Source: a virus. From it: a stretch of DNA of 15,593 nt. This document shows positions 577 through 13,296 of the stretch, piece by piece (position 1 is the stretch's first letter; the number at the start of each line of letters is the position of its first letter). Where the stretch lies: UHGV virus genome UHGV-0078853. One strand, written 5' to 3'. Made by a program: the position numbers and the translations under genes. Under the pieces are notes generated by a model. The model had not been told where the DNA came from and ran no database searches. It worked only from the letters and a program-made list of their open reading frames with translations.

Positions 577-655
577 CAGTATGTCCCCTGGACGTTGGAA
601 TCCGGGCCACCCGGATTTACATGTCAAGAATAAATTATTCCAACATACAAGGCAA

Positions 656-1151: not shown

Positions 1152-1175
1152 GTTTCCCCTTTCTCGATAAGTAAA

Positions 1176-1195
1176 GCCCCGCCTTAAAGCGGGGC
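1176..1195 (-). promoter_or_regulatory. GC-rich leader hairpin (GCCCCGC-cttaaa-GCGGGGC) just upstream of the i-spanin start
   Basis: 7-bp perfect inverted repeat read from sequence; on the minus strand it is followed by UUUACUUAUCG and then the spanin Shine-Dalgarno. Attenuator/terminator or stabiliser role is inferred. Confidence 0.4.
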
Positions 1196-1215: not shown

Positions 1216-1408
1216 CATAGAAACGGCGTAATCTCAGTAAACCAGTTACTTTTTACACAAGCAATAGAGTATGGCCCTTCCGAACGCGTCAGCGTAACTA
1301 CACTCAGGACTTACGTCCCGCTCCGTTACCTGCCCGCGCCGCGGTCGCTTGTTCATACTTCACAAGCTCAGGTGGAGCTTAGCACATTTTTGGTGAAAAG
1401 TCAACTAT
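1216..1408 (-). repeat. copy A of a roughly 190-bp conserved non-coding promoter-leader element (copy B at 12484-12680)
   Basis: Manual alignment with 12484-12680 shows long shared blocks, e.g. caatagag/ctNtggcccttccgaa, aactacactca, ccgcggtcgcttg, cacaagctcag, agcttagcaNattttt, aaaagtcaa. Roughly 75-85 percent identity by eye, direct orientation. Confidence 0.8.
1376..1404 (-). promoter_or_regulatory. putative sigma70-type promoter inside element A (TTGACT-N17-TAAGCT, minus strand)
   Basis: Minus-strand -35 TTGACT at 1404-1399 and -10 TAAGCT at 1381-1376 with a 17-nt spacer. The same hexamers and spacing recur in copy B. The -10 is weak, so strength is uncertain. Confidence 0.4.
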
Positions 1409-1466
1409 TCGAATAGTTTATTCCAACATTTACAATTGAGTGGAATAACTGGAATAATCACAGGCA

Positions 1467-1489
1467 CTAAAAAGCCCCTTTCGGGGCTT
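1467..1489 (-). terminator. intrinsic terminator downstream of the Ig-like gene
   Basis: Minus-strand RNA forms AAGCCCC-GAAA-GGGGCUU followed by a U-run (UUUUUAG), 5 nt after the stop at 1494. Confidence 0.6.
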
Positions 1490-3041: not shown

Positions 3042-3057
3042 AGCCCCTTTCGGGGCT
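3042..3057 (-). promoter_or_regulatory. hairpin AGCCCC-GAAA-GGGGCU between portal and head morphogenesis genes (terminator-like or stabiliser)
   Basis: Same core stem-loop sequence as the terminator at 1472-1489; on the minus strand it is followed by UUUCUUAUAG. Confidence 0.4.
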
Positions 3058-11011: not shown

Positions 11012-11041
11012 CTCTGTCTCTCCTCTCGCTTGTGTAAATGA

Positions 11042-11070
11042 ATAGTAGCCTATTCTATCTTAGTGTGCAA
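11042..11070 (-). promoter_or_regulatory. internal promoter, TTGCAC-N17-TACTAT family (minus strand)
   Basis: Minus-strand -35 TTGCAC at 11070-11065 and -10 TACTAT at 11047-11042; same hexamers, spacing and flanking AATAGGnTACTATTCA as the promoter at 12335-12363. Confidence 0.45.
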
Positions 11071-11585: not shown

Positions 11586-11733
11586 ACCTCACACCTCTTT
11601 CAATCAAGGATTGCACACCAGCTTTCCACGCCCGCCACGCGAGACGCGTCTTAACGTTCAGGTACTCTTTCTTTGAACCCTTGTTAACCGGCAGACCCTC
11701 GACCACAGCCCACCGTTCAAATGCTTCTCTCAT
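11578..11733 (-). CDS. hypothetical small protein (51 aa)
   Basis: ATG 11733 overlaps the upstream stop (ATGA); translation MREAFERWAVVEGLPVNKGSKKEYLNVKTRLAWRAWKAG...; stop overlaps the next start. Confidence 0.4.
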   Translation of the reverse strand: MREAFERWAVVEGLPVNKGSKKEYLNVKTRLAWRAWKAGVQSLIERGVRYG

Positions 11734-11908
11734 ACCAGAACCTCACATTCATCCAGATACACGAACAATAACGACCCTTTGTACTCAATCATAAAACCAT
11801 AATGGTTGATGCTGAACGCCGGAAAAACATCACCTACCGAGATACCGAAATCTATAAGCCTGCGGTCAGTTATACGGACAAGCCTGCGGTCAGTTATACG
11901 GATTCGCA
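11730..11908 (-). CDS. hypothetical protein with internal 8-aa tandem duplication (59 aa)
   Basis: Likely start ATG 11908 (GGGAGG upstream); N-terminus MRIRITDRRLVRITDRRLIDFG encoded by a 24-bp tandem repeat. Confidence 0.5.
11857..11904. repeat. 24-bp tandem direct repeat, 2 copies (22/24 identical)
   Basis: agcctgcggtcagttatacggaca followed immediately by agcctgcggtcagttatacggatt; in-frame within the CDS 11730-11908. Confidence 0.9.
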
Positions 11909-12109
11909 TTAACGGCAACCTCCCTCAGAGTCGTCGGCACAAGCATCACGATTCGATGCCGTTTTGATTGCCTGTAAGCTATTTAGCATTTGCTGGCTAT
12001 CCATCGTAATAATTGTAATCCCGTCTGATAAATGCACCTCGTAGCGTTCAGCTACGAAATATATTTCCTCGAAATCATGATGTTTCAGTTCTTCAAATAA
12101 TTCTTCCAT
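11909..12109 (-). CDS. hypothetical acidic protein (66 aa)
   Basis: ATG 12109 with an AAGGGG Shine-Dalgarno; overlaps the upstream stop (TGATG). Confidence 0.5.
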   Translation of the reverse strand: MEELFEELKHHDFEEIYFVAERYEVHLSDGITIITMDSQQMLNSLQAIKTASNRDACADDSEGGCR

Positions 12110-12300
12110 CACTTCGCCCCTTTAAATTTAAAATTGTTGCCGATGAGTTTTAAGTTCTCCTCTTCTACGTATATTTGTGAATTTACCCCTCTCACCTTTT
12201 GCACGGTCACTACGTACTCACCGGGAAATAAATTAGATTTTAATTCAATTATGCCGTGTTCACCGTCGGCGCATTTAACCAACTGACCATTCTTAAACAT
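12109..12300 (-). CDS. hypothetical protein (63 aa), first gene of the leftward early operon
   Basis: ATG 12300 (or GTG 12309) with a GGAG Shine-Dalgarno; translation MFKNGQLVKCADGEHGIIELKSN... Confidence 0.5.
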   Translation of the reverse strand: MFKNGQLVKCADGEHGIIELKSNLFPGEYVVTVQKVRGVNSQIYVEEENLKLIGNNFKFKGAK

Positions 12301-12334
12301 AACCCTCACTCCTCTGTCTCGTTCCGATAAGTGA

Positions 12335-12363
12335 ATAGTATCCTATTATGTTGGGGCGTGCAA
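12335..12363 (-). promoter_or_regulatory. promoter proximal to the early-left operon, TTGCAC-N17-TACTAT (minus strand)
   Basis: Minus-strand -35 TTGCAC at 12363-12358 and -10 TACTAT at 12340-12335; dyad AATAG-N4-CTATT overlaps the -10. Confidence 0.5.
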
Positions 12364-12422
12364 GAGATTAGTTACGTTGCCGTTGTGATTCTTTCGTTTC
12401 TTAAAGGAGTACGCAACGCAGT

Positions 12423-12442
12423 GGGTGGGCGTTAGCCCACCC
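12423..12442. promoter_or_regulatory. stable GC hairpin GGGTGGGC-gtta-GCCCACCC in the early-left leader
   Basis: 8-bp perfect stem with no adjacent U-tract on either strand; lies between element B and the proximal promoter. Confidence 0.45.
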
Positions 12443-12483
12443 CAGCGGAGTGAAGTACTCTCTACCTCACTCACTCACGGCAA

Positions 12484-12680
12484 CTATAGAAACTTTTAAT
12501 TATCAGTGACTTGGGTATTTAGGCGGGATTAACAATAGACTTTGGCCCTTCCGAAAGCGCCAGCGGAACTACACTCAAGTGCCTAATGGCACGCGTTGCG
12601 TTCCCTGCCGCTCCGCGGTCGCTTGCGATATCTCACAAGCTCAGTGAAGCTTAGCATATTTTTAAGTAAAAGTCAATACT
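12484..12680 (-). repeat. copy B of the conserved promoter-leader element
   Basis: See 1216-1408; same blocks in the same order and orientation. Confidence 0.8.
12648..12676 (-). promoter_or_regulatory. putative promoter inside element B (TTGACT-N17-TAAGCT, minus strand)
   Basis: Minus-strand -35 at 12676-12671 and -10 at 12653-12648; identical architecture to the copy-A promoter. Confidence 0.4.
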
Positions 12681-12723
12681 AGTAGCATCTTTTGTATCTT
12701 AGTAACTTTGTGTGGTGTTTTGG

Positions 12724-12752
12724 TTGCTTTTACAAAGTTACCGCCTTATACT
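12724..12752 (+). promoter_or_regulatory. putative rightward promoter for the replication operon (TTGCTT-N17-TATACT)
   Basis: -35 at 12724-12729 and -10 at 12747-12752; AGGAGA Shine-Dalgarno and ATG 12782 lie downstream. Confidence 0.45.
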
Positions 12753-12781
12753 TAGGTACATCTTACATAGGAGAACGTGAA

Positions 12782-12952
12782 ATGACTATCAATGAAGTAG
12801 CTGAACGTATTGGGGTGACACGTCAGACAATTAATAACTGGATTAAGAGTGGAAAGTTTCCTGATTGCAGCGTTAAAGTAATGGGTCGCCGGATGCCGGG
12901 GACATTTGACCGTAATAAAGTTGAAGCGTGGATTAAGGAGAATGTGAAATGA
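12782..12952 (+). CDS. AlpA/excisionase-type helix-turn-helix DNA-binding protein (56 aa)
   Basis: MTINEVAERIGVTRQTINNWIKSGKFPDCSVKVMGRRMPGTFDRNKVEAWIKE matches the AlpA-family HTH pattern. Real start is ATG 12782 with AGGAGA, not the track start at 12692. Confidence 0.75.
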   Translation: MTINEVAERIGVTRQTINNWIKSGKFPDCSVKVMGRRMPGTFDRNKVEAWIKENVK

Positions 12953-13239
12953 AAGGTGTAATTTTCCACGATAAAGAAAATGACAGTGCTTATATGGTTT
13001 ATTTAGTGCAAGGCGAGTACGCGTTATGCTTTAACGTTTCTTGTAAACTGGACTCTTATTCACCGTTTTGCGTTACAGAAGAATTGCAGTTGATTAGTCT
13101 CCGAAGACTCAGCACAATGTCGGCTTCCATCGATGTCTCTGACCACTTAGCGTACGTTTGTCAGTATTTCGGTGATGAGATTGTTGTAGATTATTATCGT
13201 AAGTACGCGCATTTGATGGAATGTCTGGCTAATAGATAA
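12949..13239 (+). CDS. hypothetical protein (96 aa)
   Basis: ATG overlaps the upstream stop (ATGA) with an AAGGAG Shine-Dalgarno; no recognisable motif. Confidence 0.55.
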   Translation: MKGVIFHDKENDSAYMVYLVQGEYALCFNVSCKLDSYSPFCVTEELQLISLRRLSTMSASIDVSDHLAYVCQYFGDEIVVDYYRKYAHLMECLANR

Positions 13240-13296
13240 AAGAAAGCCCCAGCGTTAGAGCGCCGAGGCCAAATTACTTGCCGAGGGAAATATAAC

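Follow-up and report, generated by a model that had tools for sequence, protein, structure and literature searches.

In a virulent Kagunavirus, the divergent early control region carries a leader RNA of about 100 nt, apparently undescribed, that folds into two hairpins and belongs to a portable cassette made up of the distal leftward promoter, the leader, a linker and a GC hairpin. The window, that is the whole stretch of 15,593 nt that was analysed (UHGV virus genome UHGV-0078853), comes from a phage of the genus Kagunavirus (Guernseyvirinae) with 95% identity to Kagunavirus phages; gene order was taken from phiEc3 and dunkel. The leader occurs twice in the window, once in the control region (cassette B) and once, 11.3 kb away, at the head of the late spanin–scaffold–capsid operon (cassette A). 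Related cassettes are grouped into four classes, A to D. The coordinates are collected in Table 1.

Table 1. Features of the control region and of the two cassettes (window positions; promoters as predicted).
Feature	Position	Strand	Description
Distal leftward promoter, -35 (element B)	12676-12671	-	TTGACT; kept in class A, B and C cassette copies; one TCGACT variant
Distal leftward promoter, extended -10	12656-12655, 12653-12648	-	TG, n, TAAGCT; 17-nt spacer ending TGC
Proximal leftward promoter	12363-12358, 12340-12335	-	TTGCAC, N17, TACTAT; hexamers kept in relatives
Rightward promoter	12724-12729, 12747-12752	+	TTGCTT, N17, TATACT; would drive HTH gene, ATG 12782
Inter-promoter segment	12677-12723		47 bp between the divergent -35 hexamers, highly conserved
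Palindrome TACTAGTA	12677-12684		Abuts distal -35
Leader RNA copy B	12522-12647	-	Covariance model R1: 89 bits, E about 1e-24
Helix P1	12621-12640	-	GCUUGUGA-GAUA-UCGCAAGC; begins about 2 nt past predicted start
Helix P2	12551-12618	-	Base CCG/CGG, bulged C, GGNGCG/CGCNUU with two invariant G.U pairs
Tail AAGGGCC	12544-12550	-	Unpaired 3' tail, invariant
GC hairpin closing cassette B	12423-12442	-	GGGUGGGC-UAAC-GCCCACCC; no U tract; 101 nt past RNA core
Palindrome CTATTCGAATAG	1405-1416		Perfect; abuts -35 of promoter A
Promoter of cassette A	1376-1404	-	TTGACT 1404-1399, N17 ending TGC, TAAGCT 1381-1376
Leader RNA copy A, paralogue of B	1251-1374	-	R1: 110.7 bits, E about 2e-31
Intrinsic terminator closing cassette A	1166-1195	-	GCCCCGCUUUAAGGCGGGGC then UUUACUUAUC; 24 nt before i-spanin ATG 1151

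Promoters and putative operators of the control region

Positions 12301–12781 form a gap with leftward early genes on one side and a rightward HTH gene on the other. The original prediction had placed two tandem leftward promoters here, an 8-bp GC hairpin lacking a U tract and a rightward promoter feeding an AlpA-like gene. On re-reading the sequence all listed features were found where they had been described, and this layout was confirmed. The HTH gene (12782–12952) belongs to an excisionase/AlpA-type family (phrog_66) and is one of only four early genes in an RNA-seq study of Kagunavirus (PMC12645636). As a sigma-70 promoter the rightward element would drive this gene and the replication operon. 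An open reading frame at 12346–12474 (42 aa, GTG start) was rejected as spurious; it overlaps the hairpin, and the segment is exchanged for unrelated sequence in class C relatives.

Judged solely by their match to the consensus, the three promoters score 8/12, 7/12 and 8/12, which is below the scan threshold, and none of them was listed by the scan. In the window the scan returned 14 sites compared with 14.6 expected, with no enrichment over shuffled sequences. The consensus promoter and terminator scan neither supports nor refutes the three promoters. They are backed by conservation. Both rightward hexamers are invariant in 14 diverged relatives, which carry two unrelated spacers of exactly 17 nt each, and the distal and proximal hexamers are likewise retained. 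That hexamers and spacer length are kept while the spacer sequence varies supports all three promoters.

The distal element TTGACT-N14-TGC-TAAGCT has the TGn motif, A2 and T6 in the -10 hexamer and a -35-like hexamer 17 nt upstream, as is typical of a sigma-70 extended -10 promoter, and we take it to be one. TGnTAAGCT is kept in classes A to C, where n is C, A or G; in class D the element reads TGnTACGCT, and TAGACT precedes it by 17 nt. Transcription is predicted to start at about 12641–12642.

Within the 47-bp segment separating the divergent -35 hexamers GTAGCATCTTTTGTATCTTAGTAACTTTG is nearly invariant; the segment could hold UP elements or regulator sites. The palindrome TACTAGTA had been noted between the divergent promoters. 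In relatives the commonest form of this site is TACCAGTA, and TATCAGTA, TACCTGTA and TACCGGTA also occur, the centre being variable. The palindromic form is a minority variant that is not conserved, and it is probably due to chance. Since TACTAGTA is not conserved, a second palindrome, AATAG-N4-CTATT at 12334–12347, which overlaps the proximal leftward promoter, is the better candidate operator. The corresponding motif TGAATAGTANCCTATTAT has two matches in the window (12332–12349 and 11039–11056), compared with 0.02 expected, and occurs seven to eight times in the phiEc3 genome ahead of genes on both strands. The predicted proximal promoter is a member of this motif set, which is repeated about seven times per genome and whose promoters would probably be co-controlled by a phage DNA-binding protein.

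A 'phage promoter' consensus obtained with PHIRE for Kagunavirus, tgAATAGTa-ccTATTat-T, has been ascribed to a phage RNA polymerase (PMC9825357). The site at 12332–12349 matches this consensus exactly, and the one at 11039–11056 with one mismatch. However, TTGCAC-N17-TACTAT or, read the other way, TTGACA-N17-TATAGT overlaps the motif. Because of this overlap, and because no RNA polymerase gene is annotated in these genomes, the motif resembles a promoter of host type that contains a palindromic operator.

The region had also been interpreted as the main early regulatory switch. It is indeed a divergent early control region, but the leader cassette also heads the late operon and is consequently not specific to an early switch. 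Since Jerseyvirus relatives have the proximal promoter without element B, the distal cassette is best regarded as an accessory addition and not as the core of the switch. The original prediction saw no repressor or Cro-like gene in the window; close relatives carry a DicA-like repressor gene about 3 kb rightward, just beyond the window end.

Structure, copies and range of the leader RNA

A conserved leader had been recognised downstream of the distal promoter. It is present and repeated; what had been missed is that it is a covarying structured RNA within a portable cassette. The RNA consists of the P1 hairpin, the long irregular P2 hairpin and the invariant tail AAGGG(C/U)C. P1 starts 2–5 nt past the predicted start across the classes; the -35 hexamer, the 17-nt spacer length and TGn are retained, and the other spacer positions vary. 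In class A, P1 is GCUUGU/ACAAGC, with U-A replaced by U.G in some sequences, and at the same position class D has the unrelated hairpin UACGCU-UUC-AGCGUA. Above its base, P2 continues with P2b, P2c, an internal loop and the apical hairpin P2d. The N:N' position of the base is found as C-G, U-A and A-U, and the 3' side of the internal loop reads AGUGUA in classes A and B, AGCGUA in class D and AGUGAG in class C. Despite divergent helices the tail is present in 35/35 distinct family members.

The apical and middle helices are wholly different among the four classes, with pairing retained. In a hand alignment padded with N, 99.1% of the cells are paired and 13 of the 22 pairs have changed on both sides, compared with 25–44% in slid controls; MAFFT had shifted P1 of class D, hence P1 was left out of this pair count. 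In an alignment made with the covariance model, 98.9% of the cells are paired, with double-sided changes in 10 of 28 pairs. From the unedited sequences, MAFFT followed by RNAalifold yielded the base of P2 and no other helix, since indels misalign the inner ones. The leftward sense folds 10–11 kcal/mol better than its complement. Together with the two invariant G.U pairs this makes the structure strand-specific; the leader fold is real.

Two further pairings were considered and rejected. A pseudoknot between the P1 loop and the tail (AGUAUG with CAUACU, 6 bp in class A) is impossible in classes B and D, and the co-change from G-C to A-U between CUG[G/A]CGC and GGG[C/U]C consists of single events only, with an A.C in class A.

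No known RNA family covers the leader in the collections searched. Rfam 15 gave no match at gathering thresholds in the whole window and none in 12300–12800 at E<=10, and no tRNA or tmRNA was found in the window with ARAGORN. In the searchable literature we found no mention of the leader; on Guernseyvirinae transcription it offered no more than lists of promoters predicted in silico and a single RNA-seq study of low resolution.

Element B repeats element A over two stretches (12533–12577 corresponds to 1262–1306, and 12644–12676 to 1372–1404). Both in the window and in phiEc3 there are two leader copies, each heading a long co-directional operon. Copy A shares its genomic position with the copies of the Jerseyvirus dunkel and of class D Salmonella phages; Jerseyvirus has a single copy, at the late operon. 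Among the sequences scanned the leader was found only in Guernseyvirinae, and it precedes the capsid operon in every Guernseyvirinae genome or contig examined. A profile scan of genome contigs produced 87 matches, of which a single one is a true member: L208, a contig of 6 kb from a bin labelled as a 'Bacillota' MAG. Recurrent matches in Actinomycetota (18–23 bits) were discarded; they appear to lie within coding sequence, as judged by eye for L180 only, and reflect the pattern used for pre-selection. Matches in viral contigs to the loose pattern ACCGCGG-N45-75-TTCGGAAGG were mostly due to chance.

Hairpins and terminators closing the cassettes

In every class a GC hairpin follows the RNA core after a variable and poorly conserved linker of 67–101 nt, and compensatory changes occur within the classes (GCCCUGC/GCAGGGC for the terminator of cassette A; in class D GCCCGGC/GCCGGGC and GCCCGAC/GUCGGGC). 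In cassette B the hairpin, as DNA GGGTGGGC-GTTA-GCCCACCC, has eight perfect pairs; one such perfect 8-bp GC hairpin is present in the window, with 0.3 expected. In class C cassettes this position is taken by UGGUGCC-UUC-GGCACCA, a hairpin of another sequence with CGUUCGUUUCG after it. Neither the class B nor the class D hairpins have a U tract (tails ACUGCGUUG and UUAGCGUAU), and they may not terminate at all. Since similar hairpins without a U tract lie between other genes too, for example at 598–616, they could be ordinary mRNA-stability elements.

The cassette A terminator, in which a hairpin at 1195–1176 is followed by a U-rich tail, adjoins the spanin ribosome-binding site and leaves no room for a promoter before the i-spanin gene. 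Transcription of cassette A is predicted to start at about 1369. The palindrome CTATTCGAATAG next to its promoter occurs in nearly all class A copies (variants CTATTTGAATAG; in dunkel CTATTCTAATAG) and is absent from class D; with one occurrence in the window it does not exceed chance expectation. As the preceding operon is closed by a terminator at 1489–1472 just upstream of cassette A, promoter A would be the only visible promoter of the late spanin–scaffold–capsid–tail operon. A further terminator-like site (3057–3042) lies between the portal and head genes, again with no room for a promoter.

A classical attenuator or riboswitch expression platform would need a conserved alternative pairing with the 5' arm of the terminator. 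By inspection no shared antiterminator pairing is evident: the hairpin arms are different in each class (GCCCCGC, GCCCGGC, GGGUGGGC, GGUGCC) and there is no conserved complement in the core. This candidate was rejected on inspection only.

Possible functions of the leader

The leader most likely sets how far RNA polymerase reads into the two long operons. As to the way in which it does so, we tentatively favour a cis-acting antitermination leader, like HK022 put or the lambda pR'–6S–tR' arrangement and not homologous to put, a reading that is quite possible, if somewhat short of probable. The nascent leader RNA would begin to fold within a few nucleotides of its 5' end and would act in cis on the transcribing polymerase, by itself in the manner of HK022 put or together with a phage or host factor. 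The polymerase would thereby become able to read through the hairpin or terminator of the same cassette and through terminators further on. Cassette B transcripts would then reach the lysis, terminase and portal genes, and cassette A transcripts the structural genes. Since the classes have one RNA core in common and differ in their terminator sequences, the target is more likely to be the polymerase than any single hairpin. Sequence features, the fold and strand of the RNA, copy number, context and taxonomic range are established by the present analysis; promoter activity, transcription starts and any effect on termination are inferred. Against antitermination stands that the rightward replication operon has no leader copy and that the Jerseyvirus left arm is also without one.

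HK022 put RNA suppresses pausing and termination independently of proteins by way of the zinc-binding domain of the RNA polymerase beta' subunit. We know of no put counterpart of the invariant single-stranded AAGGGCC tail. HK022 has two copies, putL and putR, which are situated downstream of early promoters, form two stem–loops and act without protein (PMC9378689). The leader resembles put in several respects: a genome has two copies, both placed after a promoter at the head of a long operon with terminators; the RNA consists of two GC-rich stem–loops with bulges and internal loops; it is transcribed by the host RNA polymerase; and, as in putL, the fold starts with or close to the first nucleotides of the transcript. 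In contrast, put comprises about 70 nt (stem I with a bulged loop and triplex, and stem II) and the leader about 100 nt, with a short P1 and a very long P2. The put phage is lambdoid and has both sites at early operons, whereas the leader is found in virulent Guernseyvirinae with one copy at the late structural operon. When the HK022 nun–cI–cro region with both put sites was searched with R1 (filters off, one direction only), the best score was 6.5 bits and lay off the put sites; with no match on either put site, homology to put was rejected.

In lambda, the order is promoter pR', a leader of about 200 nt (6S RNA, 194 nt), the intrinsic terminator tR', which is read through with the help of Q, and then lysis and structural genes. 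Cassette A has the same order and is followed by the spanin, scaffold and capsid genes in relatives; the palindrome abutting its promoter could bind a factor. The lambda late leader RNA is not known to need a conserved fold, and Q loads via DNA and a sigma-dependent pause. In the cassettes it is the fold of the RNA that is conserved, and no conserved -10-like pause element was seen in the early transcribed region. With lambda nutL and nutR, at which N acts and which give terminator-resistant transcription, the leader shares the two copies and a cis-acting RNA signal downstream of promoters. It differs in being five times larger and in having no small boxB-type hairpin with a GNRA-like loop, and no arginine-rich N-like protein was recognised. 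A search of the window for boxA (CGCUCUUA / UGCUCUUUA; YGCTCTTTAA with <=1 mismatch) gave four matches compared with 2.0 expected, none of them near either cassette, and a lambda-type nut site was rejected on this ground. PHROGs and Pfam scans of 20 small early and left-arm proteins encoded inside the window revealed no N- or Q-like protein; these proteins matched only families of unknown function, DUF2737 and, below threshold, NinH.

Rather doubtful is the more specific proposal that the leader represents a second put-like class of RNA, structurally unrelated to put, in which the nascent transcript alone would bind the E. coli or Salmonella polymerase and render it terminator-resistant. The cassette would then be a portable combination of promoter and antiterminator that virulent Guernseyvirinae use for the late structural operon and, in Kagunavirus, for the left arm.

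A promoter, a conserved structured RNA and a terminal hairpin are also the standard layout of a noncoding RNA gene. Each cassette could be such a stand-alone gene of about 200–225 nt whose product works in trans, for instance by titrating a host protein or by countering a host defence, its position ahead of an operon being incidental or the operon being fed by leaky readthrough. Each of the two diverged paralogues has kept a promoter and a hairpin of its own, the class A hairpin is a canonical terminator, and the single-stranded AAGGG(C/U)C could bind a protein or another RNA. We consider this unlikely, however, since with no other promoter visible for the late operon between the 1489–1472 terminator and the spanin ATG a heavy readthrough of cassette A would be needed anyway; the missing U tract of the class B and D hairpins makes a defined 3' end doubtful, and the linker between core and hairpin is poorly conserved. 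Equally improbable in our view is an element acting on the mRNA, that is a 5' structure against 5'-end-dependent decay or an RNase III site, with AAGGGCC as a loading site for the ribosome or S1 and the GC hairpins as 3' stabilisers. A hairpin at the very 5' end blocks the entry of RppH and RNase E, and P1 is only a few nucleotides away from the predicted transcript start. P2, a double-stranded hairpin of about 22–25 bp with internal loops, resembles T7 RNase III sites in outline, the tail is Shine–Dalgarno-like, and the hairpins between other genes mentioned above fit as well. But a stabiliser needs a simple 5' hairpin only, and the strict conservation of the P2 base, the internal-loop motif and the tail would be unexplained while the other helices are rewritten. 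A leader peptide is unlikely, since the UUG after the Shine–Dalgarno-like tail varies (L029 has CUG and L075 UUA) and each class has different short frames.

It is very improbable that the structure works at the level of single-stranded DNA instead of RNA, say in priming or single-strand initiation by the phage helicase–primase. The helicase–primase gene does lie next to the control region, and both copies are on one strand. But the distance to the conserved promoter is fixed in all four classes, the main helix is closed by two invariant tandem G.U pairs, whose G.T equivalent in DNA would be weak, and one copy is located amid the late gene region next to terminators.

To our knowledge, protein-independent RNA antiterminators come essentially from one lambdoid lineage, that of HK022 put. 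The leader bears on how virulent siphophages without an RNA polymerase of their own, among them the Jersey-like and K1G-like phages in wide use for phage therapy and biocontrol, time and maintain late transcription. The leader is a covarying, promoter-coupled RNA without an Rfam family, and its role is open to simple reporter and in vitro transcription assays. If it turned out to be a trans-acting noncoding RNA or a stabiliser, it would still constitute a new phage RNA family, though of narrower interest; if it acts on the polymerase, it would provide a compact new part for synthetic biology.

The control region and its promoters

The best matches of the 501 bases around the flagged region (12310-12781) are Kagunavirus genomes (Guernseyvirinae) with about 95% identity, e.g. 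AV104, phiEc3 and NRG857CP3; 241 records of phages of Escherichia, Salmonella, Raoultella and Klebsiella are reached by weaker matches. The gene layout of the window (see table) was read with the annotated genomes of phiEc3 and the Jerseyvirus dunkel as a guide. The HTH gene is among four early genes in the sole Kagunavirus RNA-seq paper, in which the gene classes are coarse.

Features of the window and of the cassette classes
Feature	Position	Strand or direction	Remarks
10-bp GC-rich hairpin with U-rich tail	13245-13270	leftward terminator orientation	gap between rightward genes 12949-13239 and 13297 onward
HTH protein, excisionase/AlpA type (phrog_66)	from 12782	rightward	56 aa; then helicase-primase replication genes
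Rightward promoter	12724-12752	rightward
Distal leftward promoter	12648-12676	leftward
Element B	~12493-12677		direct repeat of element A
Leader RNA, copy B	12522-12647	-
CTCA/CTCAC-type repeat cctcactcactcac	12465-12480		linker of cassette B; insertion compared with most relatives (cttgctcac)
GC hairpin	12423-12442
Proximal leftward promoter	12335-12363	leftward
Motif TGAATAGTANCCTATTAT	12332-12349 and 11039-11056
Motif TTGCAC-N8-ATAATAGGNTACTATTCA, second window copy	11039-11070	-
Same motif in the phiEc3 record	4577, 13946, 31074, 33985, 34029, 37722, 39007
Leftward arm	from 12300	leftward	~20 small genes of unknown function; holins and endolysin; further small genes; terminase small and large subunits, portal, head protein, gene 1494-1955
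Perfect 23-bp tandem direct repeat AAGCCTGCGGTCAGTTATACGGA	11856-11902		two copies 24 bp apart, inside small leftward ORF 11730-11918; encodes a repeated RITDRRL peptide
Terminator-like hairpin AGCCCCGAAAGGGGCU with U-rich tail	3042-3057	-	between portal and head genes, 10 nt upstream of next ATG
Terminator closing left-arm operon, AAGCCCCGAAAGGGGCUU with UUUUAG	1472-1489	-	nearly identical to hairpin 3042-3057; then element A, then i-spanin gene
Perfect 12-bp palindrome CTATTCGAATAG	1405-1416		adjoins -35 of late-operon promoter
Element A	~1222-1405
Leader RNA, copy A	1251-1374	-
i-spanin gene	765-1151	leftward	in relatives first gene of spanin-scaffold-major capsid-tail operon
GC hairpin without U tract, AAUCCGGGUGGCCCGGAUU	598-616	-	between spanin genes and scaffold gene; preceded by TTGACA
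Class A cassette			late-operon copy, Kagunavirus and some Jerseyviruses; closing hairpin GCCCCGCUUUAAGGCGGGGC then UUUACUUAU
Class B cassette			allele of early-left copy; closing hairpin (that of the flagged region) GGGUGGGCUAACGCCCACCC then ACUGCGUUG
Class C cassette			other allele of early-left copy; closing hairpin UGGUGCCUUCGGCACCA then CGUUCGUUU
Class D cassette			late-operon copy, other Salmonella Jersey-like phages; closing hairpin GCCCGGCUUACGCCGGGC then UUAGCGUAU

Direct reading of the sequence confirmed that the originally predicted features, two tandem leftward promoters, a GC hairpin between them and a rightward promoter, are all present at the positions given for them. The distal, proximal and rightward promoters score only 8/12, 7/12 and 8/12 against the consensus, none was listed by the promoter scan, and the scan found 14 sites in the window versus 14.6 in shuffled sequences, i.e. 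no excess. Consensus matching alone is therefore uninformative, and the case for the three promoters rests on comparison with relatives. Across 14 diverged sequences the hexamers TTGCTT and TATACT of the rightward promoter do not vary, and its spacer occurs in two unrelated versions of exactly 17 nt each. The distal leftward promoter keeps TTGACT, a 17-nt spacer and TGnTAAGCT, with the remaining spacer positions including n being variable; its class D equivalent reads TAGACT-N17 with TGnTACGCT. Judged by this conservation, the pattern is that of a sigma-70 extended -10 promoter. TTGCAC and TACTAT of the proximal promoter are invariant among the relatives compared.

The 47 bp separating the divergent -35 hexamers are strikingly conserved among relatives, and real regulator sites may lie in this segment. 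The palindrome TACTAGTA, which had been pointed out between the divergent promoters, is treated as a chance occurrence because only a minority of relatives carries it, the commonest form there being TACCAGTA. Perfect 8-bp GC hairpins occur once in the window versus 0.3 expected. The hairpin between the rightward genes downstream of the HTH gene may stop antisense transcription entering the control region. Taken as a whole, the region is a divergent phage promoter region of the ordinary kind.

The proximal leftward promoter is one member of a repeated motif set (TGAATAGTANCCTATTAT, or TTGCAC-N8-ATAATAGGNTACTATTCA when read in promoter sense; two matches in the window versus 0.02 expected), in which the palindrome AATAG-N4-CTATT covers the -10. 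There are seven to eight copies in phiEc3 and several in dunkel, upstream of genes and on both strands; one copy is inverted within a TTGACA-N17-TATAGT arrangement. A matching consensus has been published as a PHIRE 'phage-RNA-polymerase promoter' of phage fBC-Eco01 (PMC9825357). As the annotation of phiEc3 and dunkel, which carry the motif, shows no RNA polymerase gene, we take the motif to be a host-type promoter whose palindrome is a candidate operator, and its copies look like a single operator-controlled promoter set. The HTH protein is one candidate regulator; another is the DicA-like repressor which, according to their annotation, relatives encode about 3 kb rightward, just outside the window. 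The palindrome adjoining the late-operon promoter is built from the same pentamers, CTATT and AATAG, here everted and 2 bp apart; such a palindrome occurs in nearly all class A copies and is missing from class D.

A structured leader RNA within a cassette

In pattern scans of IMG/VR the leader element turned up on about 55 contigs, 41-45 kb in length, and its copies fall into four sequence classes. Single-sequence folds gave an architecture common to all classes: a P1 hairpin of 5-8 bp, a conserved A and a long irregular P2 hairpin. The base of P2 consists of CCG/CGG, a bulged C and GGNGCG/CGCNUU with two invariant G.U pairs; P2b and P2c follow, then an asymmetric internal loop (3' side AGUGUA, AGCGUA or AGUGAG); a tetraloop or pentaloop caps the apical hairpin. 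An unpaired, invariant AAGGG(C/U)C lies 3' of P2. Standard pairs fill 99.1% of the 457 cells in a hand alignment (22 distinct sequences), in which 13 of 22 pairs have changed on both sides; in the alignment to the covariance model R1, built from the leader (65 matches, 35 distinct), 98.9% are paired and 10 of 28 pairs have changed on both sides. These percentages are inflated, as each alignment was fitted to the structure. Sliding the partner by 1-3 columns in the hand alignment reduced pairing to 25-44%. The middle and apical helices differ wholly in sequence in each of the four classes with pairing retained, and C-G, U-A and A-U pairs are all found at the N:N' position of the basal helix. 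On the strength of this covariation, the 'conserved leader' of the original prediction is a structured RNA. Its fold depends on the strand: the leftward sense is 10-11 kcal/mol more stable than the complement, in agreement with the promoter orientation.

P1 starts 2-5 nt past the start predicted from the -10 in all classes, and in every class a GC-rich hairpin with compensatory changes within classes lies 67-101 nt beyond the RNA core. Only that of class A is a textbook intrinsic terminator; those of classes B and D lack a U tract. Only 24 nt separate the end of the class A terminator from the spanin ATG, which leaves no room for a promoter, and just upstream of cassette A another terminator ends the operon before it. 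As far as can be read from the sequence, the late structural operon therefore has no visible promoter other than promoter A with its leader. Because classes B and C differ from the promoter through the hairpin inside nearly identical flanks, the cassette appears to be exchanged as one unit. Class C cassettes carry on the RNA strand a repeat complementary to that in the cassette B linker, CUCACUCACUCACUCU, which would be C-rich and rut-like.

Two leader copies each were found in the window (110.7 and 89 bits with R1) and in phiEc3. Dunkel has the late-operon copy only, with a proximal-type promoter still present on the early-left side. Beyond phage contigs of Guernseyvirinae size, the only true match is a 6220-bp contig of a 'Bacillota bacterium' MAG (JAEWLW010000073.1) with a full class C cassette (2131-2256, 94 bits) and Kagunavirus-like flanks; this contig almost certainly comes from a phage and was assigned to the bacterial MAG by mistake. 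The remaining genome matches were weak products of the search pattern and were rejected.

Possible function of the leader

We place the leader among the promoter-proximal leader RNAs that act in cis. The structured RNA would form right at the 5' end of the transcript, heading two long operons read by host polymerase, and the strong class A terminator would have to be read through for expression of the capsid genes. Acting in cis, the leader might render polymerase terminator-resistant, alone or with an additional factor. We favour this reading tentatively, because an RNA at the 5' end heads two operons, a hairpin always follows, in one case a strong terminator, and no class-conserved pairing between leader and closing hairpin was seen. 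The logic matches that of processive antitermination by the nascent HK022 RNAs putL and putR (PMC9378689), and the cassette resembles in layout the late leader of lambda, pR'-6S RNA-tR'. However, R1 had no match on the HK022 put sites even with filters off, so that the leader is not a put homologue; put-like working is a proposal. Neither a boxA near either cassette nor, among the small early or leftward-arm proteins, a recognisable N- or Q-like protein was found, which also speaks against antitermination in cis, as do the missing U tracts of classes B and D and the similar hairpins between other genes. In this phage, GC hairpins without U tract may be a general kind of intercistronic element.

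It is unlikely that the leader is instead a stand-alone noncoding RNA acting in trans, and we give an equally low chance to its being an mRNA stabiliser, a processing or a ribosome-loading element. A single-stranded-DNA signal seems very improbable.

The leader RNA has no match in Rfam, even at E<=10, and no mention of it was found in the papers searched for its invariant 12-mer and for Kagunavirus or Guernseyvirinae transcription; it appears to be new; the repeated proximal motif was already known. The proposal of a main early regulatory switch holds in part. What makes the region interesting is its RNA cassette, not the way the promoters are arranged.
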